DNA of 63,990 nt, counting the filler, from Basidiobolus ranarum (taxonomy: Eukaryota): the NCBI GenBank assembly GCA_040143965.1. It is 3 parts of 3 records of this genome, joined end to end, with 100 filler letters (N's around TTAATTAATTAA, not from the genome) between each part and the next. Parts side by side here need not be neighbours in the genome. Positions count along the whole stretch, not along the records: positions 23,448 to 46,779 come from JASJQH010007044.1; 2 more parts are not named here. The stretch is one strand, 5' to 3'. Positions 4,881-63,851 of the stretch are shown here, in pieces. The first letter of the stretch is position 1. Each line of letters begins with the position of its first letter. The translations under genes were made by a program, and so were the position numbers. Below the pieces are notes generated by a model that was given only the letters and a program-made list of their open reading frames with translations, did no database searches and had not been told where the DNA came from.

Positions 4881-7447
4881 ATGGCTGTCGATTTTGTTAT
4901 GACCATTGATGACGAGGACGTTGTTCCTTTGTTAGATGAAGAGGAAGCCGTAGAGACTCAAGAAGTAAACGATTTTCTCACTATTTTCTTTTGTTGAAGT
5001 AGTTAAATAACCTCGTTTTATCGACCTTTGTTAGACTACAAAAAAGAATAAGAAGAAGCAAAAGAAACAGGAAGAAGCGATTAACCCAGGTTTCAAATTC
5101 GACTTGGAAGGTGATTCTGTTAATAGTCTTACCCACTCACTCGACTTCACCACTGCCAAGGCATCGTTGAAAAAGAGGGACCCAGTATGTGAACTTTAAG
5201 TGACGCGTAAAGTTGTTTTATTTTTTAACTTTATTTACCTTTTCCATAGTCTGCCAATTATACAAGTCTTGATGAGAAAATTGCCAGTAAACGTCTTCAA
5301 ATGAAAGGCAAGAAACAGCCTACTGAAGAAGCTGAAGGTTAGTAACAAGATCCACATTAAATACTTTGTAATATATTTCATTTGTTAATGGTTATATAAT
5401 ATTTACTTTAGATTCCGAAGAGGATGGTATGGATCCTGATAACTCTTTTTTCATGGATGAAGAAGAAGAGGAGGATGATATTGAAGTAAGCGATGATGGT
5501 GATAATGACGAGCAAAATTCGGAATCCGAGGAGGAGGAAGAGGATTCTGAAGAAGAAGTTAATGATGAAGAGGAGGAGGAGGAGGAAGAGGGAGAAGATG
5601 GTAGCGAAAGTGAAACCGAATACGAAAAAAAAGTAAGGCAATATTTGAATTACTTTCTAGGGAAGTGATATACTCACAATTTATAAAATAGCGTAAAGCA
5701 GCTTATTTCGCTACACCTGAGGAATCATCGAGTGAGGTTCCCGAGTCTTTCGCCAGTATGAATCTGTCCAGACCCATTATGAAAGGGTTAAGTAACATTG
5801 GTTTCGTCAAGCCTACCCCCATTCAGGCTAAGACTGTCCCAGTTGCTTTACTTGGTAAAGATATTTGTGGTGGTGCAGTTACTGGTTCAGGTAAGTACTT
5901 TAGCTTTGATGTTAAATCTTAATGTGTACTAATTCGTATTGAATTTAGGTAAAACTGGTGCCTTCATCGTTCCTGTACTCGAGCGTCTTCTTTATCGCCC
6001 TCGTCAAAACGCCGCAATTCGTGTTTTAGTTCTTTGTCCCACTCGTGAGTTGGCTATCCAGTGTCATAGCGTTGCTACCAAGCTCGCACAATTCACTGAC
6101 ATCGACTTCTGCTTGTGTATTGGTGGTCTTTCTCTTAAAGTACAAGAGGCAACTCTCAAACAGCGTCCTGATGTTGTTATTGCCACACCAGGTCGTTTAA
6201 TCGATCACATTCACAATTCACCATCCTTTACTTTGGACCAGATTGAAATCCTTATTATGGATGAAGCCGATAGAATGTTGGAAGATGGTTTCACAGCTGA
6301 ATTGACTGAAATTGTCAACAACTGCCCCAAAGCTAGACAAACCATGCTCTTCTCCGCTACCATGACTGATAACGTTGATGAATTAGTCAGACTGTCACTC
6401 AACAAACCAGTCAGATTGATGATTGATTCACCTAAATCCACAGCCGACAATTTGACTCAAGAATTCGTCAGAGTTAGACAGCACCGTGAAGCTGACCGTT
6501 CAGCCATGCTTGCCTCCCTTTGCAAGAAGTATTTCAAAAAGAGATGTATTGTTTTCTTCAGAAGCAAGGCTTCCGCTCATCAAATGAAGATCATCTTTGG
6601 ATTGTTGGGAATGCGTGCTGCCGAACTTCATGGTAACTTGACACAGGAACAACGTCTCGAAGCGTTGGAACAATTCCGAGATGAGAAGGTGGACTACCTT
6701 CTTGCTACCGACTTGGCGTCTCGTGGTCTTGATATTAAAGGAATCGAAACCGTTATCAATTTCAATATGCCCACTAGCTTTGCACAGTATCAACATCGTG
6801 TTGGTCGTACTGCTCGTGCTGGTCTCAGTGGTAGATCCGTCACATTGGTTGGTGAAGCTGATCGTAAAATGCTTAGAATTGCCATTAAGCACACCTCTAA
6901 AGATAAGATCAAGAATCGTGTGATTGGTCAAGAGATGATTCAGAAATACAAGGAGAAGATCGATGGTCTGACTGAACAAGTGAAAGAAATCATGAAGGAA
7001 GAGAAGGACGAGAAGATGTTCCGTCAAGCTGAAATGGAGGTCACCAAGGCTCAAAATCTCATTGATCATGAAAAAGAGATCTACGGTCGTCCTGCTAGAA
7101 CATGGTTCCAATCGGAAAAAGAACGTCAGAAGTCCAAGGATGTTGCACTTGCTTCACACAATGCTAAATTTGAAGCTAAATCCAAAAAGGTTCCCAATAG
7201 CAAAAAGAGACGTATGAAGACTTCCGAAGACGTTCACGTTGAGAACACCCAAATGAGATCTATCAGAGCTGCTAAGAAAGCACTGTTACCCAAGAAGATT
7301 AATACCGTCATGGAACGTGGCGCCAAGGCTGGACCAGCCAAGAAGAAGCAGAAGAGATACAATAGTTTCTCATCTGATCTTGCTGATGGTAGTAAGCGCA
7401 ATGCCGGTCCTAAACTGACAAGCAAGAACAAGAAAGGGAAGAAATAA
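4881..7447 (+). CDS. DRS1: Nucleolar DEAD-box RNA helicase (Drs1/DDX27), 6 exons
   Basis: ATG 4881 ([13 protein letters not shown]), acidic N-terminus, Q motif [14 protein letters not shown] across the intron 5892-5948, [21 protein letters not shown], and the Drs1-type [10 protein letters not shown] motif. Confidence 0.95.
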
Positions 7448-17126: not shown

Positions 17127-19325
17127 TTACGAGTCGTGAGCCAATCCATTAGCACTGGCTAATCTCTCATCAGAGCGGCAGGCCTCAGCGAAGGAGCGAT
17201 TGATGTTCCAGAGTCTTACTGTGCGATCGTCAGAACAGGAGGCCAACTGATGTACATTTCAAAGATATTAGTTCAGGAAATACAAATTCTATTACTTGTG
17301 ATGATAACATTACATGCTCAATATCGTTGTTGGACCACGACACACTAGTAACTTCATTTTCATGTGCCTTTAATATCAGTGGAGCCTTTTTAGGGGAATC
17401 GACTTCCCATATATAAAGATTCTTATCACTGGATCCACTGACTAAAAATTTAGTATCTGGACTCAGTGCTATTTTAACATAGAAGGATGAGCATTTGTAT
17501 GTAGACGAGTTGAACGTTGCGATCGGGCTTCCGAGGCTAGTTGTAGAATACATGGATATCCTTCAAATACAGAAACCAAGGGATTAGATAAATAGGAATA
17601 TGAACGCTAGATTTGATTGCCACTATGTTGTGGACATATTATACTCACTGATTATTCGTGCTAGCGGCAAATATTCGATGACCCATAGGATCTAAGGCTA
17701 GTGAAGAGATCCCTATGGTAAAAATGAAATGTTAATAGAGCTGATGGCCAATAATACATATGAAAACACCAACCATGTGCTCTTTTTGTTGGGCCTTTAT
17801 GAAGTGACGTCGCAACAGGAGTAATATAGGGCTTCAAAGAATGAGATCCATGTTTTCGTGTATCCCATATTTTCACTAATCTAAATAGCGAACAGATTTT
17901 AGAATCCACAATGACCGTCCTACAAATGCTCAAATGGTGCTTACCCATCAGCTGCACCTGCAGAGCTCAGAAGTGATGGCGCGTGAGTTAGAAATTGAAC
18001 GGCGGTAACGCTGTGTGAGGTGTCATTCTAAATGAGGAAATTTAAGAAAGTCAGGTAAGTGGTGACTTGGCCGCCATTGTTTATCGAGTATTCATACCGT
18101 AAAGTTGGTTCCGACTTTCCTACGCTTCGGAGACGGTGGAACGAAATTCAAAGAGTGGGCATGCTTGATTATGTCAACGGGGCGATGTCTATACTCTATA
18201 AGTAATGTGCGGTTTGTGTTAAATCAAGTAATTTCATCCTTCTGAGTTGGCCAACTTACCACCACTATTTAAGAGAGAACCTGAGCATCGTGTATCCCAT
18301 ATCATAACATTTCCATCACGAGAAGCGGTCGCAAAAATATCTAATTATATCAACTATAAGTTGAATTTCGTTCTAGCATAGGGAGTATGTCAATAAGTAC
18401 TTACGATTGTCAAACGGGTTGATCGTTACCGATTTGACGCTACTGGTGTGTCCGTAAAAGTTACCAAGACACTTCCGTGTTTCCACATCCCAAAGACCAG
18501 CAGTTTGATCCCCTGAAACTGTGATCTAAACAACAAGTAAACAATACTGCTCCATTCAATTCCATAGATATATCTAGTTTACCACTCGCTTATCGTCGTG
18601 GGTCCACTGTACATCGAATACAGCATTATTGTGAGCATGCCAACTAATTCTGGTTCGTTCTGGGTGGTAGAATAGTAGAGTGAGTAATGGAGATACTGTA
18701 AGTGTAGGCGTTAAATGCAGAATTACCATTTTCGATGGAGTTATCAAAGGAGGTATCCAATATATTTACTCTTCCTTCCTCATCAGCTACCGCAAGAAGT
18801 CTCCCATTGGATTCAACTAAGGATAAAAAATCGTTAAGTCGAAGTTGTATATAGTTTCGAGGAGATATATTTCGATAACCTACTGTTGTTAAAAGTACAA
18901 CCAAAGGGTGGTGCTGCGGTATTGTTTTCTGACATGAATTTATATACATCTTTCTCTGTACTAACAAAATCTTTTATATAAAAGCGTTGCGAAACTATAT
19001 ATGTTCTTTTTAGTAAATTGAAAATAAAGGCTGGAAAGGTATTTCGGTTACCCTGTGGCGCTTGAGCGAAGGAATGGCCTTGTATTTGTCTATGAAATAA
19101 AGCAGAAACAGGGGGCATTGTGGATTCTCGTATAAACTTTGGTTTATAACACGTGTCTATTGTGGGTATTAATGAAAATGAGACTTGTGTGGAAGAAGAG
19201 TTGGAAGATAAACAAGAAGAAGTGCGTTTATTAGAAGAGCGAGAGAAAGTAAATGGAGTATTTAAGCATGAGTGCTGGGAAATTCTGGTTGGGTTGTTGG
19301 ATTTTCTTTTTCTCGGTAAAGACAT
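17127..19325 (-). CDS. CDT2: WD40 protein Cdt2/DTL (CRL4 substrate receptor), many exons
   Basis: PPFGCTF, LAVADEEGRV, WHAHNNAVFDVQW, TVSGDQTAGLWDVET, GHTSSVKS, ATASRDGNVMIWDTR, LLSSAGAADG, SSFYVK, SGSSDKNLYIW, ASCSDDRTVRLW. The start codon is uncertain. Confidence 0.88.
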
Positions 19326-19613
19326 CTCGAACGTATTATACCAAGGTGAACAAAGGCTCACCGTTTCTGTTTGTAAGATTATTTTTGTTGACTTTTTACC
19401 AACACGCGATTCAATACACACATAATTAGTTTGTTGATTGGTTTAAAAGAATATTTGAATGATATTCTTTTCTCAGGTTAATATTTTTAATCAATCGATA
19501 AATTTAATCCAATCAAACAGATTATTCTGACGGCTATTTCCTGAGTGTTTACTCAGGTAACAAGATATAGAAATATGAGTTATAAGTTCTGACAAACGAG
19601 ACCCAAGTAGTGT

Positions 19614-20173
19614 TCAACCTTGTAAGCCTGCTTCAAGGTAGTGAAATATGAGGAATCGATAGCCTTGGATCAACTGAGTGATTTCGTTAGTCAAATGACA
19701 AGCAAAGAGCAAGTAGTTCACTGGTCTGACTACTATCGCAAATCTCATGAAAAGAAGGGAGTAAAGACACAAAGCTACATAGTTTAATACACAGTGGAAA
19801 TAGACTTTAAGTGAAGTGTTACTTACCAACAGTCATCTTTCCAGATATTAGGTCTGGTGATTTTCCAATATCCACGATACCCGAAAGAGGGATGAGCCAG
19901 TTTGCTGCAGGCCCCCAGAAATGCTAATGAGAAAGCAAACTGTCAATCATACAATAGTAAAGTGAATTATTTTAACTTCTTACTGTGCTAGTTGAGGTAA
20001 ATCCAAAGTTAAAGGTTCAAAATAATCCATACGAGGAATGACAAATGCGTAAGTGGTAAATGGTTAATTAAATTGGAAAAGAATTTACAGGTTTCATACC
20101 TGCACAAGTAGTTTACGAACTCCCGACTTCGAACACGTTCTAGTAGAGTTGGTTCTTCAAATGGTCTGTTCAT
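19614..20173 (-). CDS. MPC1: Mitochondrial pyruvate carrier 1, 4 exons including a 4-nt microexon (19984-19987)
   Basis: [58 protein letters not shown]. Confidence 0.92.
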
Positions 20174-20450
20174 TAGGTTGATTAACAAGCTCAGGCCAGA
20201 AGGAGCATTCTACAATTGTTAATGAAATAGTTCTGATCAAATAAGTTCTTAGATGAGATTGCTTGCAGATCCTGATAATTGATATGATCGTAACTGCGAT
20301 CAATATTTCCTGAATATTAGTTGAGCTAACGAGGATTGAGAGTTTATTAAGTACTAGGACTACTAGATAAAGATAGGTCTATTGGGTGAATGGTGCTATG
20401 TGTGTGAGAAGGGAATGTGGAGGAGTGTATGGTTGGTACAATCAATCAAT

Positions 20451-21506
20451 CTATGCTTTTTCGGTCTCAGCCTTTCGTTCCTTCGAACGTAAATAATTGT
20501 ACCGGAGTAGTGCTTGAACATTGCTCTTGGTTGATAGTTCCTGTGCTACCCGCGTCCAATCATGGCCATATTTCTTGACTAGATTTAGTAACTGCTCACT
20601 TTCTTCGTCAGTCCAGCGACCTTTGGTAATTTTAGGATTTACATGTGCATCGTATCTTGCTTGTAGTTGAAATGGTGTTCTGCTAGGAATCGATTCAGAG
20701 ATTTTAGTCCAACTTCTACCATATTTTTGGCATCCCTTCAAGAGTAAATCATCTTCTTCCGGAGACCATTTATCACGACTCGTGTTGGGGTTGAGAAATT
20801 TATCGTAACGAAGTAAGGCGTGTCTACTCGATCTCCCAGGAATATCTTTGACAATCCTTTCCCAATCACGACCATATTTCTCTACGCCATCCAGTAGAGA
20901 AAGATCTTCTTCCTCTGTCCACCGACCTGTCTTCACGTCTGGCTTGAATCGAGACTGCCACCGAGAGTAGCAGCAAGCAGAAGAACGACCAAGAACTTCG
21001 GAAATAACCTTCCACTTGCCACGATATTGTTCCATTGAAGTTAGTGATCTCAGAGTTTCGTCTTCGTCAGCAGACCACGGTCCCTTTTTAAAGTTATTCG
21101 TCAAAGTCAAATGCATTTGATAGCAAGAATTCGGAGTTCTACCTGGAAATAGTGTCGAAGCAATGTGGCTCCAACGATTTCCAAACGTTTTTACCGCTGT
21201 CAATAATTTTTGACGATCCTCTTCTGTCCATTTGTATGAAATCCGTTTTCCTTTAGGCAACTTGTTCTTGGGAGTATATTCCCACGCCTCTTTCTCAATT
21301 TCGTTATCCTGCTTTTTTGCGACATTACCAGAACATCGTAGTTGAGATGTGAAGAATGTGGGTTTTAGAAAAGGGAATCTGACGCGCAATACACAATTTT
21401 CTACATGAATAACACAAATCCGACTAACTTAGTATTCAACTGAAGACCACAGCACAAATGATGTCTAACAAATAAACTTACGCGTCTGTGAGTAGAATTT
21501 CAACAT
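20451..21506 (-). CDS. Five-repeat Myb/SANT protein, copy 1 (intron 21401-21481), with a putative mitochondrial presequence
   Basis: Five W-x19-W repeats starting KWTEEDR, PWSADED, RWTEEED, KWSPEED and RWTDEES. A short ATG exon is conserved between the two copies. Confidence 0.9.
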
Positions 21507-22237: not shown

Positions 22238-23155
22238 TTACTTATTTTCTTCGTTAGTCCATCGACCTGTGCCAACTTTACAATTTAGCCGTGAATCATA
22301 TCTTTTTTGTAGTTGATATCGTGTTCTACCAGGAATCGATTCTGAGATCTTAGTCCAGCTTCTGCCGTATTTTTGATATCCCTTCAGCAGCAAGGCATCC
22401 TCTTCTGGGGTCCATTTACCATGATTGGTGTTAGGGTTAATATATTTATCGTAGCGAGTTAAAGCGTGCTTGCATGTTCTTCCGGGAATATCTTTAACAA
22501 TCTTTACCCAATCACGACCATACTTGTTTACACCTTTCAGAAGAGAAAGATCCTCCTCCTCTGTCCACCGACCTGTCCTCATGTTTGGTTTGAATCGAGA
22601 CTGCCATCGAACGTAGCAGCAAGAAGGGGAGCGATTTAGAGCTTCGGAAATAACCTTCCACCTGCCACGATATTGTTCCATTGACGTCAGTGATCGCAGA
22701 GTTTCGTCTTCGTCAGCAGACCACGGTCCCTTTTTAAAGTTATTTGTCAAAGTCAAATACATGTGATAACAAGATCTCTGAGTTCTATCTGGAAACAAAG
22801 TCGAAGCAATGTAACTCCAACGTGTTCCAAGTGTTTCCACAGCTGTCAATAGTTTTTGACGTTCCTCCTCCGTCCATTTTTGTGTAACCCTTTTCCCTTT
22901 AGGTAGCTGCTTCTTAGTTGTATATTTCAACATTTTTTCCTCTTTTATTACGGTATCATGGGTCTTCGCGACATTTCCAGAACATCTTAGTTGAGAGGTG
23001 AAGAAGGTGGACTTGAGAAAAGGGAATTTGAAACGGATTGCAAAGGGCTCTACATAAATAACACAGATTCGACTAACTTAGTATTTAACTGAAGACCACA
23101 GCACAAATGAAGGTGAAATAATAAACTTACGCGAGTGTAGGTAGAGTTTTAACAT
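22238..23155 (-). CDS. Myb protein copy 2, truncated to four repeats by a premature stop (possible pseudogene)
   Basis: Close paralogue of copy 1 with the same intron. TAA replaces CAG at 22238. The downstream in-frame remnant LLKLDNKYGHN*V*IGQEI*TKNNVQ..KERKAEFEKS* runs to ~22097. Confidence 0.85.
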
Positions 23156-24335: not shown

Positions 24336-27142
24336 GTTTAGGCAATGCTAATTTTGACAGTATGCAATCTCACAAGCTGTTAGAGATATTATGATGATTC
24401 AAGCCCATTACAGTGCATGAATTTCCAGCTACAAGGGAAACCAAACATTGCCTCTGCAGCTCTGATTTTGAATTCAGACATTTTTTTCACCAACATTAGG
24501 TAAACTAACATAATATTCATTGGTAATATTGTTTCAAAAGATGCTTTTAATACATACAATAGTATTCTTGACAGAGCCAGTGAAAACTTGAAAGCAGATG
24601 TTGCTATGCAAGCAACAGGGTCCCAAACATCATTACAATGGCAACTAATCACCAAGTAAGAAAAATACTTGAAATGTGCTTGGCAAAGCCATTATGCATC
24701 TGAGTATCAGGAACTGCCCTCACAACATGGACCCAATCTTGAAGTTTTATTACCTTAGATAGTGTCATATGCTGCATATAGAATATTGGATCACAGATTC
24801 TAGAAATCACGTGGCAATGTTTGGCAATATCCAATACCCTCCAGCATGATTGGTTTAAATTATGTTTACTCCATTACTTTGAGCTAAGGTCTAATAAACT
24901 CTTGCCTGATGGAATAAGTCTGGTTTATAAAATAGAGGTTACCTGGGGCTTTTTATCCCTTTTCCCTTGGATTCAACATTACTAAGTGACATTTTGATCT
25001 TGACAAACATTGAGTTAAGATATATTTCTTGTTCCAAGCTGCTTGGGATATTCCATTGACAGCAAAATTTTCCATTCTGTTGCAGAATTTGGAGCCATAA
25101 TAGTGTCAATAGCGCTTGATGCAGCAGCTAGAAGTTGCCATAGTGATGTCGGTCATTGCTTTAGAATATATTTCTCGCTAGAATAAGAGCTCAAGTTATT
25201 GTAATATACTTTGCCAATAAGCACCAAATGCTAAGCATAATCAGAATAGTTAAATGAAATTACTCTAGTTCAATATTTGCACGAGACGCTGAGTCAGCTT
25301 AGTCATCATATATGAGCGATCGAGCGTAAACGAGTGGAGTCTCCCTATGATGGCAAAACGAAGATCCAAAAGCAGTTGGAAAGATAAATCACTTGCATCA
25401 GTGTTTTGCAATTAATTTTTCGCGTCAAATAGTTGTTCATTAGTGCACTACTTTTTTGAACCGACATTAGCGGAATAGTAAAAGCCAGTCAGTAGGCATT
25501 GGGCTAGATTTAGCTAGTAAAACTAATGCGCCGACAATACCTCTTTTAACATGCACATTTCGAATTCCAGCGTCTAGTTACCTATTATTGCACGAATATT
25601 TCGGTATTTCATACTTGCTTTTGACTTCCCAATCCAATAACCTTGAAGCTGTATTAACAGCATACACCCTGACACTCTTATAATGCATGCATGATCATCA
25701 AAATAGCTTAGAGTTTATTTAATTTAGTCGTTGACACCCACCGACATATTAATATAGAATTCCCCAGACAGGCCCGAATTGATTAGTACTATAAAAGCAG
25801 CCACACTTGATTGGTTGATGTTTCCACTTAGGGTCTCGGATACGAATGAGCTAGATTGGTGTGATATATAAGCAGTCTCTCAAACCCCACATGATCCGAG
25901 AGATGATTTGATTTAATCTTCGATTCAGCGCGCATAATATGGGGGTAGATTCGCCTGGTAAAGGTAGTAATGAGTCAGTGATCGCTTGTGCATCTATTGC
26001 ATTTAATACTGGTTGCGCCTATGTAGCTGAATTGGGTATATTCAAGCGAAAATCGATTAATGGTCTTGATCGAGTATATGAGACATTCTGATTGTCAACT
26101 GTAACCTGGGGCTATGACTAGGAAAAGATTCTCAGGATTGACCAAAGTAACTACATATCAAGTTTCAGATATTAACACCCAGAGGGCATATTTGTTTTGG
26201 TAAGCAGAGGCACCTGAAGCCAGAGTATAGGCTCTATGCCATACAGAGTGTTTTGTTTCTTCCCAGGTTGCAGCTTTAAGAGTGATCATGTGAAACCGAA
26301 CTATACAGTATCAAGAGAATTCAAATATGGGTGCTTTGTGTCATGTTAAACGAGATACGCTTTCGTATGTGGGTGAGTCGGGAGTCAATCGCACTCGATT
26401 CGTATCATGCGTATTCATTCAAACACTTTTTATCCGTATCTTTGTTAGAGACGTACAACGGCTTATGAAAAGCTAAATGTACATGCAGCATACTTTGTTC
26501 CGAGGTTCACCCCATCCGACCTCTCTTTCTTAGTAACTTTTCTGGTGATTATAAATGGCCTTTCCAGTGTGTGAATTTCCACCGGATAGAATTCCTGAAG
26601 CTTTGGAAGGTTCTTATGTTTCGAAATGATTCTAACCATTGTTTCTTGGATAGTCCGTTTTACAATCTACCAAACAGTCAATACTGGGTAATTTCCATTC
26701 TTAGACCATGCGGAGAGCAAAAGTGGAACTGTAATTGATCACAAACCTCACACTTGAGCCAATCTCTTAACCAGATCTGTGGCAATCATGCTTCGTATAC
26801 TGGCTGCTTATCCCTCCAATCACTCAGCTATCCGAGTTTAGTGTGGTATGCATGACAGAAGTAATATGAAGGTGATCACACGTGGTTTGTTTGGCTAAAT
26901 TATGGTGATCTAAGTATCACAGTTCACACAGCGTTACACTCCATTCTTTATCGAAAACATTGATATAACATTTACAGGATCTTGGCACCATTTTCCTTTT
27001 TTCTTCCTCACGCTCATAAAAGGTAAGAGAGGACAAGAAACCTCCAAGATCAAGGATAAATCTTCACACTATTTAATACCAGCGTCTTACTCACATTGTT
27101 CTCTTGCAGCGATAGTTCTTTATCTTTCCTTCACTATTTCTC

Positions 27143-29832
27143 ATGTTTAACTTTTCGTCCTTTTTATTATCTTCTGCTGTACTAATTTTGAGTGTATATA
27201 CTGATTACTCATTGGCCTATCCTAAATCCAGCAACTTTGCCTTGTCTAATGTCCTCAACTTGGTAGACAATGTCTCTAGTACTGATAGCAGTACTGCACA
27301 GCCTCTCACTTATTTTCATCAAAATTGGGAGGCCAAATATATTGTTATATCGTATTTGGTATCGGTATTGGGGGCTCAAACGGCCCTCGAATTAATCAAT
27401 CGTCGAACCGGATCCACTGGATTACACAACTGGCTTCTGCTAATAGGAGCTTCTTTAGCTATGGGCGGTGTAGGTATTTTCAGTATGCACTTTATTGGGA
27501 TGGTTGCCTTGAATCTTCATCACCCTTTTGAAAAAACCTCCAAAATGTATCCAATTGCTTATCAGTTCGGATTCACCTTTTTATCCATTTGCTCCAGTTG
27601 GATCGGTGTCGGTTTAGCATTTTATTTTGTTGGAACTTCAGAACGCGTAATTCCTTCTCGAATTGTAGCCAGTGGCCTTTTCGCTGCTGCTGGTATTTGT
27701 ACTATGCACTATATCGCTATTGTTTCGATGAATACTCACGTGGTGTACTCGCCTCTAATCGTCGCCGCTTCGGTTGCAATCGCCATCGTAGCAGCGTGTG
27801 CCTCTTTGTTCATTTTTTTCACACTACGCTCCAAGTGGAAGGCTGCATGGTGGAAACGAACCATTTGTGCTATGATTATGGCTGTGGCTGTGTGCGGGAT
27901 GCATTATACTGGTAAGTTAGCCTATCCCAATTATTCGTGTTTTCACTATCATTTCGATTTGCCATAGTATCTCAACAATATTCTCTCGGCGAACTATAAT
28001 TAGGAATGGCCGCTGTCAATTACAAAATACAAATGGATGATATGGGGCCCAGCATGGACAATCACTTACTAAAAGGGCCTTCTGTATCTACTAATCTCCT
28101 CGTCACTCTAGTGGCTTGTATTTCCAGCGTAGTCTGCGTCTTTCTTATAGCTTACTCCTATTTTCGCTATCGAGCACAGGCCCGTGAACTTTCAAAGCGT
28201 ACCAAAATAACCCTTGCTGTGTTCTATGTGGATGACGAGGGAGCGTTGTTGGTGAACAGTGATGGATTTGTTCCTACTGAAGAAATCGTCTCCGAGTACC
28301 AGTACCGCATCAATGAGTTCGAATTCCATGTGTCTCATTCTACATTCCTTTGGGCTTACCGAGCTATGAGGACGCTGTTTGTCAGCTCAGAGGGTAGTGT
28401 TATCAATCGAGTGCTCAATCTTGATGGCTTCACCGCGGAGTACGATACCATTATGTCGGAAAAATCAGGCAAAGAGTTTGAAGTGAATAGATTTGACGAG
28501 AGACGTAACGAGCACAATTTCCAAGTGAAATTCCTGAATAGTGTCAGTAGCCTCTCTAAAACTCTGAAGATATCCCCCACTGAACTAGGTATGTTATATG
28601 ATCGGCCTATTTACCCTGATACTCTCCATACCGTAACACGCTCAAGTGAATTGAGCAACGGTAGTGGTAGCGAAGGGGTTGTCCTTTGCGTGGTACGCCA
28701 CATTTCAAATGATAAGGTTCATCACGAAAGTCATTTCCCCAGTCTGAGTTATCGTTGGGTTCAGCCAAACCTCATTGCTGGTCGTCTGAGAAAGCAGACA
28801 GGAATCAATGCGAGTGAATTGGATCGAATGACCAAGGATATTAAACAATATATTCGACACACAGTTCACGAGCAATATCCAACACATAGTCATCATGCCT
28901 CTGTACTTGTTGTTCGAACTAGCTTAAGTGGATTTCAGATCTTGGTACCCAGTGATCGTCGTGCTACTATACCTACCGTGGATATACCAATCGGAATGAG
29001 TTACGAAAGTATCAATGAATTTTGTAAACAGTATTCGAATGCCGGTGCTATGATAGAAGAACACCAGCAGACCAGTATGCCAGGTTCGAAACCAGAATCG
29101 GATGCATTTATTAGTTCACTTCGCAACCTCTTTCCGGCGAATGATTACATAGGGCATCATCCGTATCTTGATAAAGTGATAATTCAAGAAACACCCTTCC
29201 AAATACCAACATCGTCCGAGCAACGTGCACGATTTTCATCCGATTCTACAATATCTTCGGAGCCTCGAAGTGGTGATTCTTCTGTGACGGTAACAGGCCA
29301 AATGCCTATATCATCTCTATGTTCCACCATCATATTTTATCACATTTTTAGTGCTACTGAAGTCATAGCCCAGCCACCAATAGGTTATGAGTTCATTGAT
29401 TTAAAACTCTTTGAGTTGATGAACGCGTTTTATGTATGGCCCGTAGAAGCTGTTGCCCATTTCTCACGACTGGTTGAACTAGAGTTCATATCGGCACTTT
29501 CCGGCAAACGTCGGTATAGTAGCATGGATAGTCAAGAAATTACTGCCATCACGCAATTCGAAACTGAACCAGATCTACTATTAAGGAACTCTGTATTCGA
29601 AGAAGAATCCGACAAATTTTCTACGTTAAACTCGTGGTTTTCACGTTTACCAAGTGTAAAGAGTGATACAAAGAATTCATATCCTCTCACTGATAAAACA
29701 CTGGTCAACATGCATGAGAGGTCGTGGAATACTAAGCGGTGGTTACCAAAATATCTTGTATCTTCAAACTCAACAAATGTGGACTCCAAACGTCCAGACT
29801 CCGCGACTTTCTCCATCACTGAAAGAGGCTGA
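27143..29832 (+). CDS. MHYT-domain membrane sensor protein with a long cytoplasmic C-terminal region (intron 27912-28003)
   Basis: Three MHYT-type repeats (SMHFIGM, TMHYIAI, GMHYT|GM), multiple TM helices and an N-terminal hydrophobic leader. A probable 5'UTR intron lies at ~27023-27109. Confidence 0.9.
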
Positions 29833-39539: not shown

Positions 39540-40508
39540 AAGTAATTTCTGTTGATACTCGGAGATGATGCATGTCCCATTTTAGTACCAGGGACGTCTT
39601 TATCTGTAAGCTAGTAGTTGGTCTTTCTTCTCCTGCTCAACTCTTTTAGTTTTCTATTTTGATGCGTGGCCCTAAAGATAGCTACGGAGCATACTCACGT
39701 TCCAAACTAGTACTGCTAGTTGGCAATGGATATTATATTGCTTATGGTGGTAAGTTCCCATACTCTTAATCACCCAGCATACGTGGGAATTTAAGTTACT
39801 TTTTGCCTCAGATATACAGGGAAATATACGTATTTGGAATGCTACTCAAGAGGAGTATATTTTGACGAGTGAATACAAGATTATCAACCGACGTATTAAT
39901 GCTGTTGCCTGAGATTCTGAAAGCAAAAGACTGATCGCAGTTGGTGAAAGGAGAGATTTGGTCACGTGTTTGTTATTGAAACTGGTAGTTTTGTAGGTGA
40001 AATAAGCGGTCACAGTAAACCCATTCATGCGTATGATTTCCGTTCACCGAAGCCTTTCTGTGCTGTGACATGATTAGACGATAAGACAGTTAACTTTTAA
40101 TCTGGAGCCCCATATCAATTTCAAAGCTCGTTCTCGATTTGTACAAGATGTGAAGTTTTCTCCTAAGGGGGAGTATTTCGTTAGTGTTGGTGCCGGTTTT
40201 AAGGTAGGATCAAGATAGTGTGACCTAATAATGGGATGATTTATTTAATGGATATTCCAGGTCTTCTTGTATGATGGTAAGAGTGCGGAGAGATTTGACG
40301 AATGAAGTGAAATAGCAGACGGGCACACTGGGGGTATATTCTTGGAGTCCCAATGGTACGCATATCGTTACCTCATCAGCCTACTTTCGATTGTTAACTC
40401 AACAATTCGAATACTCTTTGTATCATAGCACCATTCAGTTCTCTCAAGATTCGAGCTTAAAAGATCAACAAATCGCTAACTTATGGCAGGGTCAGGTCAT
40501 TATATCAA
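39540..40508 (+). pseudogene. AIP1: AIP1/WDR1 pseudogene, N-terminal part
   Basis: Stop- and frameshift-ridden SEYKIINRRINAVA*DSESKRLIAVGE, DDKTVNF*SGAPYQF, RFVQDVKFSPKGEYFVSVG, LKDQQIANLWQGQVIIS. Intron remnants are present. The start boundary is approximate. Confidence 0.85.
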
Positions 40509-40529
40509 GATGATAATGAATTGATCGCT

Positions 40530-41325
40530 ATGATGCATAAAGTATGCATAAAGTCTTTAAAGATAAATACTATCATAATTGTCGTACTATATATACTGAT
40601 AATAGATACGATGAAGCTGTCAAGTTCGTAGCTTTTCTTTAGAAATAAATATGTTTGCGTAGGTATCCCTAGACGAATAGTCTATATATGTGAGAGATCA
40701 TGGACTAAAACAACTTATTGAGAGTATTACTAACTTCAATCCTGAACTAGCTGGCAAGTATACTATTGGACAACATTTCCTGAATGATGCTATCCTACAT
40801 TTATAACTAGACAAATTCTTAGACTCTATTATAATCATAAAGCTATCCTGATGAATAATAGAGTGTTTGACATCTATACTGGGGAAATGAGAGATGGGTA
40901 TCCTATAGATTATATCACTCTATCTAACATATCTCGCAAGTCAGATCATCGTCAGGAAATAAAGATGTATCATGAGATTTATTGGATCATTATTAGTTCC
41001 AGGCAATAGAGATAGATTACTTGTGGTATGGAGTGGAGCTGGTGACAATGGTAAAAATATACTCATGAAACTAATCGAGTTGGCTTTGGGGGAATACTCA
41101 TTAAAGTACCTACTTCTACAATTACGAGTAAACGTACAGTATCCGAAGCTGCTACTTCTGATATAGCACTTACTGAACGTAAACTCGTAGCTTTCCTTCA
41201 AGAGCCATCTAATACTGAGCGTATTAACGTGGGTATTATTAAAGAGCTTACTGGCAACGATAGTATATATGTTAGAGGTTTATACAGATCAAGTAGAGAT
41301 ATCTCTGTTCTAGCTAAACATTAGC
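40530..41325 (+). mobile_element. Decayed D5-like SF3 primase-helicase fragment (NCLDV/Polinton-like endogenous viral element)
   Basis: D5_N-like NNRVFDIYTGEMRDGYPIDYITLS; Walker A WSGAGDNGK; after a frameshift, KVPTSTITSKR..AATSDIA..FLQEPSNTERINVGIIKELTGNDSIYVRGLY. Intronless. Confidence 0.85.
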
Positions 41326-41800
41326 TATCTACCGAATTCCATGGCCATTAATTCCGATAATAATATCATCTCAGTTGGAGACGATGTTTTGGCATCTTTT
41401 GAGAGAAGCTGACTTCTGTATGTTCTTTAGACGAAGAAGATTTATCTGTACAAGCTGAATGGTGAAGAGTTAAGGTAGGAGGATATGCCAAGTAACACTC
41501 AAGGGCCTGTTTACTCTTCTCGTCGATTGCCGTTGGTGAAGCTCGTGGTAAAATTATGGTGTAGCTGAGGAACTATTATTATGAGATATTTTATGGGTAA
41601 AGCGAAGTTGAACCGAATCAAACCGTTTGGCACCCATATAGGCCAAGATCTTTCGTTGAGTCTTCTATACTGCTCGCGTCAATAGTATTACTTGGTTACC
41701 CGACAGTCTTCACGCAGTTAGTAGTATTCGTAGATAAGGAAACTCTGGCCACTGTAAGCCAAGATGCTGTCCTCAAAAGCTGGTCCTTACAATTCCCTTT
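41325..41800 (+). pseudogene. AIP1: AIP1/WDR1 pseudogene, C-terminal part
   Basis: SYLPNSMAINSDNNIISVGDD, IYLYKLNGEEL, IAVGEARGKIMV, *VFYTARVNSITW, VDKETLATVSQDAVLKSWSL. Confidence 0.75.
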
Positions 41801-63233: not shown

Positions 63234-63851
63234 TGTAAAAGTATTTTGGGAGCCTTTTGGAAGTGGTTTGGAGAGCTATAGAAGTTAGTAGTGTTCATTT
63301 CTTGATTGATTGAGTATTCAGTTGACATATATAGATTTGTCAAGATGTAAACAAATATATGTGTAGAATTTGTCAAGGAATGTCCCAGGTGTTAAAGTAT
63401 TTGGGAGCCTTTTCGAAGTGGTTTGGAGAATTAGAGGAATTGGTAGTTTTCACTTGTTGATTTATCAAGTAGAAAGTTGACATTTATAGTTTTGTCCAGA
63501 TGTAAGCAAACTAACATGTAGAATGTGTTAAGGCTGATCCCAGGAGCATGTGCCAAAGTGTGGGGCTTCTTTGAAAAATATATATATCTGAGAACTTATA
63601 AGTTGGTAAAAATATTCTAAGTAAGCTCATCATGAGAATAGCGGGTGATATCTCAGTGAAATACAGGATACCTAAATACTAAGCTATATATGACTAGGAC
63701 CATGTGTGCAAAGTTTGGGCTTTTTAAAAAATCTATATATCTTCACACTTCTAATTAAATTTCTCTTGAGGCCATATCTTAGCTCAATATGGAACAACTA
63801 AATACCAAGCCACATATGACTATAAAGGTGTTTTGACAATGCTATTCAAGA
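63234..63851 (-). mobile_element. Nested LTRs of the same copia family: an inner LTR (63390-~63696) inserted in an older LTR
   Basis: The outer copy starts tgtaaaagtattttgggagcc, breaks after gtcccagg and resumes at accatgtgtgcaaagtttggg. The inner copy starts tgttaaagtatttgggagcc. Confidence 0.82.

Follow-up and report, generated by a model that had tools for sequence, protein, structure and literature searches.

A dead D5-like SF3 helicase gene fragment in an AIP1 pseudogene of Basidiobolus ranarum and its relatives on small linear elements

Remnants of plasmids and viruses in nuclear genomes are already known, and the fragment described here is an inert example. It lies in a stretch of 63,990 nucleotides (64 kb; the window) from assembly GCA_040143965.1 of the fungus Basidiobolus ranarum, on the part taken from JASJQH010007044.1, where a dead internal fragment of a D5-like superfamily 3 (SF3) helicase gene replaces the middle of an AIP1 pseudogene. 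Yeast-type cytoplasmic linear plasmids, that is, killer-plasmid-like elements, are referred to throughout as virus-like elements (VLEs). Chromosomal pieces of such plasmids are known from budding yeasts as nuclear sequences of plasmid and viral origin (NUPAVs), reportedly originally described by Frank & Wolfe. The term is used in the text of PMC11848437 for recently captured VLE DNA. Budding-yeast NUPAVs resemble the present locus in being promoterless, decaying pieces of a linear-plasmid gene in a chromosome, with no transposon features. They differ from it in host and gene, the host here being non-Dikarya (Basidiobolus-like) and the captured gene a D5-like helicase. The yeast VLE genes described are the YKP3-YKP11 housekeeping genes and toxin genes, and a D5-like helicase is not among them.

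Free VLEs carrying YKP3-YKP11 and many open reading frames (ORFs) of unknown function are described in Coemansia (Zoopagomycota) and in Cunninghamella, Umbelopsis and Podila (Mucoromycota) in the main text of Heneghan, Salzberg & Wolfe 2026 (PMC13348850). That main text contains none of the words 'primase', 'D5-like', 'KilA', 'NTPase' and 'Basidiobolus'; it concerns free elements, for which no nuclear junctions were found. The VLE promoter, or upstream conserved sequence (UCS), is given as ATNTGA at 20-40 nt before each start codon (text of PMC6211774). Endogenous elements related to nucleocytoplasmic large DNA viruses (NCLDVs), the 'fundsalphaviruses', are described in the text of Gong, Zhang & Han 2020 (PMC7017919) from 14 fungi including B. 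meristosporus and B. heterosporus. Their shared genes comprise D5, a D6/D11-like SNF2 helicase, a methyltransferase and RNA polymerase subunits, and the word 'plasmid' does not occur in the text of that paper. Our literature searches returned, among the matches listed, no paper linking killer plasmids to a D5-like helicase, nothing on DUF5483 and nothing joining Basidiobolus with Nucleocytoviricota. We know of no description of Basidiobolus-lineage VLEs carrying a D5-type helicase.

The interrupted gene was identified from the flank upstream of the insert, which was read through its stops and matched 29 of 455 candidate proteins at E ≤ 0.001. The best match was the B. meristosporus protein P0210 (E 3e-32; runner-up 5e-18), and judged from this one best match the host would probably be a Basidiobolus relative. 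P0210 is a full-length AIP1/WDR1 orthologue, because it matched human WDR1 (2.1e-157), C. elegans AIP1 (6.7e-137) and yeast Aip1 (9.8e-100) end to end. For the insert, one frame of the D5 fragment read through its stops was used as the query. It matched 21 of 238 candidate proteins at E ≤ 0.001, most strongly P0001 (446 aa, E 5e-45, far beyond chance). Alignment to P0210 and P0001 gave the following features.

39675..40507, + strand: AIP1/WDR1 pseudogene, 5' part (P0210 residues 49-297; intron-aware alignment and tblastn)
40497..40509, + strand: left junction zone (AIP1 homology to 40507; secure D5 homology, DDNELI, from 40509)
40509..41318, + strand: D5-like SF3 helicase gene, internal piece (residues ~17-308 of ~446; 76.6% identity to P0001)
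40533..40554, + strand: 11-bp tandem duplication (atgcataaagt x2), 24 nt inside the D5 sequence, causing a +2 frameshift, the one at 40554
41314..41320, + strand: right junction zone (D5 homology to 41318, …ISVLAK; AIP1, L-N-ISYLPNS, from between 41314 and 41320)
41314/41320..41798, + strand: AIP1 pseudogene, 3' part (P0210 residues ~437-601; intron-aware alignment and tblastn)

The claim of the sequence-only reading that the N- and C-terminal halves of AIP1 flank the insert, with the middle absent, was borne out. P0210 residues 49-297 and 437-601 were aligned, codons 298-436 (139 codons) are missing, and the D5 fragment occupies their place. The two halves are collinear, in the same orientation and retain introns (39754-39811 and 40204-40260 in the 5' part, 41386-41430 in the 3' part). 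The 5' part is 67% identical to P0210 (158/235), with about 5 real frameshifts and stops at 39910, 40071, 40098 and 40303. The 3' part has stops at 41476 and 41562 and is frameshifted near 41512, 41574 and 41662; ~30 codons are also deleted within it. AIP1 residues 1-48 probably lie further upstream, at about 39560-39675, where they were read by eye rather than aligned.

Alignment of the D5-like stretch (GC 34%) to P0001 was frameshift-aware. It placed 40497-41318 against P0001 residues 13-308, with 223 of 291 aligned residues identical (76.6%; amino-acid identity ~77-80%), and required no intron. The sequence-only reading had described an intronless, frameshifted stretch of about 0.8 kb, and all three peptides that it quoted were recovered, on the + strand and in alternating frames. 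Six frameshifts (near 40554, 40634, 40689, 40831, 40971 and 41107), a single in-frame stop at 40804 and a few in-frame deletions were counted. An extension of the D5 alignment past 41318, at the cost of 3 extra frameshifts in 75 nt, was rejected as overfitting, as the sequence there is well matched by AIP1 from residue 437 on. Three of the 9 script-listed frameshifts were discounted because the sequence beyond 41318 is AIP1. The insert thus carries 7 disabling mutations in 0.81 kb and the AIP1 flanks ~14 in ~1.3 kb, similar loads that fit insert and flanks both drifting neutrally for a similar time. The insertion either killed AIP1 or landed in an already dead copy.

Both junctions are sharp and were each located to within ~10 nt. 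No direct or inverted repeats, whether a target-site duplication (TSD) or terminal inverted repeats (TIRs), flank the D5 insert. At the left junction, the 'LY' at 40500-40505 is also compatible with P0001, and the overlap of up to 8 nt, as judged from one relative, may represent microhomology. The 11-bp duplication was confirmed by direct reading (40533-40543 and 40544-40554) and is not a junction feature. It was rejected as a TSD, being inside the insert with both copies D5 sequence, and is a later slippage mutation.

SF3 helicases share a set of catalytic motifs comprising Walker A (GxxxxGK[ST]), Walker B, a motif C asparagine and an arginine finger. The fragment keeps the D5_N-like region, a Walker A (GAGDNGKN), in which the lysine is retained and the serine replaced by asparagine, and a Walker B (AFLQEP). 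It stops at residue 308, short of the family-invariant N314 and R329, and the intact motif set is not present: motif C and the arginine finger are missing, the C-terminal third is absent, and neither start codon nor promoter is present. Judged from its sequence, the window copy is homologous to D5-like helicases but cannot be active, because it ends before N314 and R329 and its reading frame is broken 7 times.

Membership of the D5-like SF3 superfamily was defined as a D5_N-type region followed by an SF3 AAA+ NTPase (Pfam D5_N PF08706; DUF5906 PF19263 or Pox_D5), and this arrangement was found. Pfam searches with the window pieces, taken singly and read through stops, gave nothing significant; PHROG 'DNA primase' families matched them at E 1.4e-6 and 2.1e-5. 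P0001 scored 19.9 bits for D5_N and 22.2 bits for DUF5906, both slightly below the Pfam cut-offs, and its relatives P0005 and P0014 carry PF08706.

Fourteen of the 21 database matches, P0001 included, were proteins of 367-456 aa on contigs of ≤14.2 kb, the contig of P0002 being 6.6 kb long. They include a tight family of D5-like proteins, 444-456 aa in length, that lack a primase domain. In an alignment of 13 family members the N-terminus is conserved, the primase region is absent, and the proteins start ~50 residues ahead of the D5_N region. P0001 matched no primase family, and P0001-P0013 carry no precomputed primase domain. The N-terminal archaeo-eukaryotic primase (AEP) fusion of D5 primase-helicases is thus not seen in the family, and by extension from the family would also have been missing from the source of the window copy, whose N-terminus is cut off. 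The NCLDV D5 primase-helicases (vaccinia D5, mpox E5 and ASFV C962R) share the homologous D5_N and SF3 AAA+ core. They differ in length (785-1000 aa versus ~446) and in possessing the N-terminal AEP primase and zinc-binding parts that the family lacks.

An exhaustive phmmer search covered 1.84 billion cluster representatives. Matches numbered 1181 at E ≤ 1e-3 and 147 at E ≤ 1e-10, and no match reached 1e-30; the best matches to D5-type proteins were at 1.5e-21. These counts place the fragment in a large D5-like superfamily with few close kin. A family profile (A1) was built from the 13 family members. It matched 68 loci in IMG/VR, 45 of them on contigs of giant-virus metagenome-assembled genomes (MAGs), at 25-37% identity. 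In a metagenome collection it matched 34 loci, among which L069 and L070 were the only true family members (51-54% identity; others ≤42%). The closest solved structures to the profile were African swine fever virus (ASFV) C962R (1.3e-15), vaccinia D5 (3.4e-3) and mpox E5. In the Protein Atlas, P0001 was assigned only to generic D5/DUF5906 clusters (bacteria, phages and NCLDVs), which are uninformative for placement. Overall, NCLDV-type D5 proteins are only 25-40% identical to the family, compared with 77-80% between the fragment and P0001. With P0001 as tblastn query, the L069/L070 family scored 343-451 bits, 46 giant-virus MAG loci 89-217 bits (43 of the 46 at ≥140) and phages at most 104 bits.

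Phylogenies were built from 281 sequences matching the family hidden Markov model, of which 271 covering the helicase core were kept. In a FastTree tree of all 271 rows, support was 99 for the window copy with P0001, 99 for a four-row clade with P0002 and P0003, and 100 for the 18-row family. A hand-picked subset of 64 rows was analysed with IQ-TREE under a posterior mean site frequency (PMSF) mixture model. To 16 of the 18 family rows (without the partial P0006 and L070) it added 25 mid-sized D5 proteins, 17 rows from giant viruses, IMG/VR or metagenomes and 6 from phages or bacteria. The same three groupings each received 99. A careful tree of 45 of those 64 rows gave 100/100, 100/98 and 100/99, respectively. 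The family and the mid-sized D5 proteins together formed a clade (99/97).

The trees and searches also bear on whether the source was a P4-type primase of bacteria or phages, gained through transfer or contamination. Several relatives carry the JGI label 'P4 family phage/plasmid primase', PHROG 'DNA primase' families match the window pieces, and 884 INPHARED phage records matched P0001 weakly. All 884 were below 60% identity, none covered ≥80% of the query, the best score was 104 bits, and the best 25 of the 884 matches were 21-28% identical. The profile search of a prokaryote genome collection gave only 4 weak loci (23-30% identity). In the 64-row tree the phage and bacterial rows were split from the eukaryotic-virus-type rows by a branch of 1.58 with support 100, which contradicts such a source and reduces its probability to a negligible level. 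The sequence-only reading had named a host helicase or P4-type phage primase as what would overturn a viral origin, and the fragment is neither; the long branch to the phage and bacterial rows is fully supported.

Terminal branches differed ~15-fold, that of the window copy being 0.22-0.24 and that of P0001 0.015, a contrast expected between a pseudogene and a gene under constraint. This difference is relevant to an assembly chimera or contaminant, in which plasmid or viral DNA would have been misjoined into a nuclear contig. Free VLEs occur in high copy number and can turn up as contaminants in assemblies (main text of PMC13348850). A misjoin is nevertheless extremely unlikely here: the insert sits between collinear, same-orientation halves of one gene, it is truncated at both ends, and its 6 frameshifts, stop and 11-bp duplication are unexpected for a free functional plasmid gene, as is the length of its branch.

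DNA context was obtained for two family members, L069 and L070, whose D5 genes are 91% identical in DNA. L069 is a metagenome contig of 6465 bp encoding a 148-aa ORF, a DUF5483 protein (E 6.8e-85), a 133-aa ORF, a 600-aa SNF2/DEAD helicase, a DUF5482 protein (E 1.2e-37) and the D5-like protein. Its TIRs are 111 nt long (arms 1-111 and 6355-6465; 99% complementary) and stand exactly at both ends, so L069 was taken as a complete small linear element, although as a 51% relative it is not the donor of the window copy. L070 encodes the D5-like protein, a KilA-N protein, a 296-aa ORF and a highly divergent Rpb2-like RNA polymerase. The KilA-N gene (L070:1053-1781; E 9e-26, with DUF3627) adjoins the D5-like gene, and KilA-N is not mentioned in the VLE main text of PMC13348850.

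PF17581 is present in every one of the 40 homologues found for the L069 DUF5483 protein. Those with names include linear-plasmid ORFs of the yeasts Lachancea kluyveri (pSKL), Millerozyma acaciae, Pichia etchellsii and Saccharomycopsis selenospora, together with proteins of Cunninghamella echinulata and Coemansia reversa. One further homologue is labelled Bartonella sp. at NCBI and carries the UniRef name 'Killer toxin protein-like protein'. For the DUF5482 protein the nearest Atlas cluster is named after pSKL and shows Pox_I3-like similarity, which was treated as a lead only. YKP-type housekeeping genes are found on both contigs (DUF5483, DUF5482 and SNF2 on L069; Rpb2-like on L070), and we infer that the DUF5483, DUF5482, SNF2 and Rpb2-like proteins correspond to YKP9, YKP5, YKP4 and YKP6, respectively. 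With the ATG picked from up to 3 candidates per gene, the VLE promoter motif ATNTGA was found 23-34 nt upstream of the ATG in 7 of the 9 L069/L070 genes, among them the D5-like gene, whereas the background density is 1.5-1.9 sites per kb per strand.

L069 and L070 thus show the hallmarks of VLEs. They share with the VLEs of Zoopagomycota and Mucoromycota the form of small AT-rich linear elements with TIRs and YKP-type genes, and have DUF5483 relatives in Cunninghamella and Coemansia; the difference is that those elements are free, whereas the window copy is nuclear and dead. We infer a donor of the L069/L070 kind. Capture of VLE DNA at a chromosome break in the manner of a NUPAV, followed by the decay now seen, is on balance the probable origin of the fragment.

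A promoterless fragment of the element, cut within the gene at both ends, would have been joined into a double-strand break in AIP1. Either at least 139 AIP1 codons would have been lost in the event, or the fragment may have filled a gap in an already dead copy. Extrachromosomal DNA taken up at double-strand breaks is familiar from nuclear mitochondrial DNA segments (NUMTs). The present insert resembles NUMT-type capture in being a random internal fragment with sharp junctions, no TSD and an accompanying deletion. It differs in that the donor would be a plasmid- or virus-like element rather than an organelle, and in that the mechanism is here deduced. By comparison with the family, the intact gene in its home element would encode a ~446-aa helicase with a D5_N region and AAA+ SF3 core and no primase, and would be transcribed from a VLE-type ATNTGA promoter. 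The protein would presumably be the hexameric replicative helicase of a plasmid with protein-primed replication. The window copy does nothing.

The remainder of the window was ordinary fungal nuclear DNA, with genes for isocitrate lyase (ICL), COX5B (upstream of the AIP1 pseudogene), DEAD and DEAH helicases, Myb proteins and an amino-acid transporter. The features of a NUPAV or other endogenous element (nuclear, among host genes and disabled) were accordingly observed, the host gene being intron-bearing AIP1 and the insert carrying 6 frameshifts and 1 stop. Neighbouring genes for a major capsid protein (MCP), family-B DNA polymerase (PolB) or A32, for which the sequence-only reading had suggested looking, were not found in the 64-kb window, nor were an integrase or any further viral gene. 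In a tblastn search of the window with 106 ORFs, taken from 9 loci of viruses or VLEs, the sole match was the D5 fragment; the same was true of 8 L069/L070 proteins. The gene set of an endogenous Nucleocytoviricota region (MCP, PolB, A32 and RNA polymerase nearby) was thus not seen within the window.

Polintons, Polinton-like viruses and virophage-type elements are known to carry D5-like helicases. This, and the many unlabelled tree relatives without context, would allow such an element with an SF3 helicase as the source. The features expected of it, namely flanking TIRs with a TSD and genes for a protein-primed family-B DNA polymerase (pPolB), integrase and capsid proteins, were absent from the window. 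No pPolB, integrase, MCP or packaging ATPase was found in the window or on L069/L070, no TIR or TSD surrounds the insert, and the context genes are yeast-type VLE genes. A Polinton-type source was considered very unlikely.

Several points weigh against a VLE origin. L069 and L070 form one subclade, at 51-54% identity to P0001, and the subclade of P0001-P0003 with the window copy lies outside the set with DNA context. The ATNTGA motif is missing for 2 of the 9 genes (DUF5482 and KilA-N), and the start codon was freely chosen from up to 3 candidates per gene. A pPolB is present neither on L069, which is complete, nor on L070, a partial contig. Non-autonomous VLEs without a polymerase are known (main text of PMC13348850), so VLE membership is compatible with this absence, and L069 looks like a non-autonomous VLE with housekeeping genes only. 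End joining as the capture route is deduced from anatomy only. The D5 family nests inside the eukaryotic-virus (NCLDV-type) D5 helicases, and its nearest neighbours with context, L001 and L071 in the mid-sized clade, are NCLDV-like contigs. Finally, endogenous NCLDV-like elements including D5 are reported in B. meristosporus and B. heterosporus (text of PMC7017919).

L001 carries a PolB, an apparently split Rpb1, a capping enzyme-methyltransferase, XPG and DUF2738, and L071 a ribonucleotide reductase small subunit, uracil-DNA glycosylase and XPG. The apparent split of Rpb1 in L001 (IMG/VR) lies within domain 5, between ORFs 567-1685 and 18662-20989; the second ORF exceeds the fetched stretch and the split is unproven. 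The L001 gene set (PolB, D5, capping enzyme and XPG) resembles the 'fundsalphavirus' set in the text of Gong et al. 2020 (PMC7017919).

The last of these points against a VLE origin would favour a relic of an NCLDV-like large DNA virus of 'fundsalphavirus' type, either as a captured fragment or as the remnant of a larger insertion. The same applies to the 99/97 clade with mid-sized D5 proteins including L001 and L071, the preponderance of giant-virus MAGs among the IMG/VR loci (45/68), and the closest structures (ASFV C962R at 1.3e-15, vaccinia D5 and mpox E5). The fundsalphaviruses are similarly decayed viral genes in fungal nuclei, Basidiobolus included, and share D5 and an SNF2 helicase with the elements described here. 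They differ in being multi-gene regions found with an NCLDV-type PolB probe, whereas the present locus is a lone 0.8-kb fragment with plasmid-like relatives. Against a viral relic stand the low identity to NCLDV-type D5 proteins relative to P0001, the lack of a primase domain in the tight family, the family context of small TIR elements with yeast-plasmid genes and VLE promoters, and the absence of a second viral gene within 64 kb. Such a relic was judged unlikely, yet it is a real rival to a VLE origin and the main one, well ahead of the other alternatives. Of the original proposal of a giant-virus or Polinton-type large dsDNA virus relic, the D5-type SF3 helicase of viral ancestry stands; the large virus as direct source does not sit well with nearest relatives that are ~446 aa long and primase-less, on contigs of ≤14.2 kb and, for the two with DNA context, in a VLE-like setting. 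The giant-virus link holds only as deeper ancestry of the D5-like gene, because the family nests within NCLDV-type D5 helicases.

A more specific version of the VLE origin was also considered, in which the fragment is the fossil of a killer-plasmid-like VLE lineage in the Basidiobolus lineage, carrying, besides the known YKP genes, an NCLDV-derived, primase-less D5-type SF3 helicase together with KilA-N and expressed from ATNTGA promoters. The evidence for and against this version was considered to be evenly balanced.

Other observations were made in the window. The isocitrate lyase ORF (171-2348, - strand; Pfam ICL E 5.8e-242, residues 21-542) ends in a ~180-aa His/Gln/Asn/Ser-rich tail derived from 24/48-nt and 33-nt tandem repeats (Tandem Repeats Finder, 329-407 and 490-611). 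Two adjoining paralogues on the - strand (20451-21428 and 22238-23077) have 4-5 Myb repeats each and near-identical N-terminal stretches, and are a local tandem duplication. A MHYT-repeat membrane domain (E 1.5e-27), described in Pfam as a bacterial signalling repeat, is encoded at 27116-27967 (+ strand). Downstream of it lies a 610-aa ORF without a Pfam match (28000-29832, + strand), and the two ORFs are probably one intron-containing fungal gene. Near the window end, at 63234-63533, a 155-bp unit is repeated 1.9 times with 80% matches.

The fragment links a Basidiobolus-like nuclear fossil to small linear elements with yeast-VLE hallmarks, which suggests that another early-diverging lineage of fungi once harboured VLEs or harbours them today. 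The D5-bearing VLE family is a more interesting by-product than the fragment itself: small linear elements can carry an NCLDV-type SF3 helicase, a gene unmentioned in the VLE main text examined (PMC13348850). This bears on the descent of VLEs from ancestors among the Nucleocytoviricota and Polisuviricotina. If the fragment is indeed the fossil of such a VLE lineage, a replication gene would be added to the set common to VLEs and Nucleocytoviricota, with the closest viral D5 relatives on NCLDV-like contigs resembling, in gene set, fundsalphaviruses that are endogenous in the same fungi, and fungal D5 pseudogenes ascribed to a 'giant virus' would in some cases be plasmid-derived NUPAVs. For paleovirology the locus is a caution, in that a single D5 match in a fungal genome is insufficient to infer past giant-virus infection.

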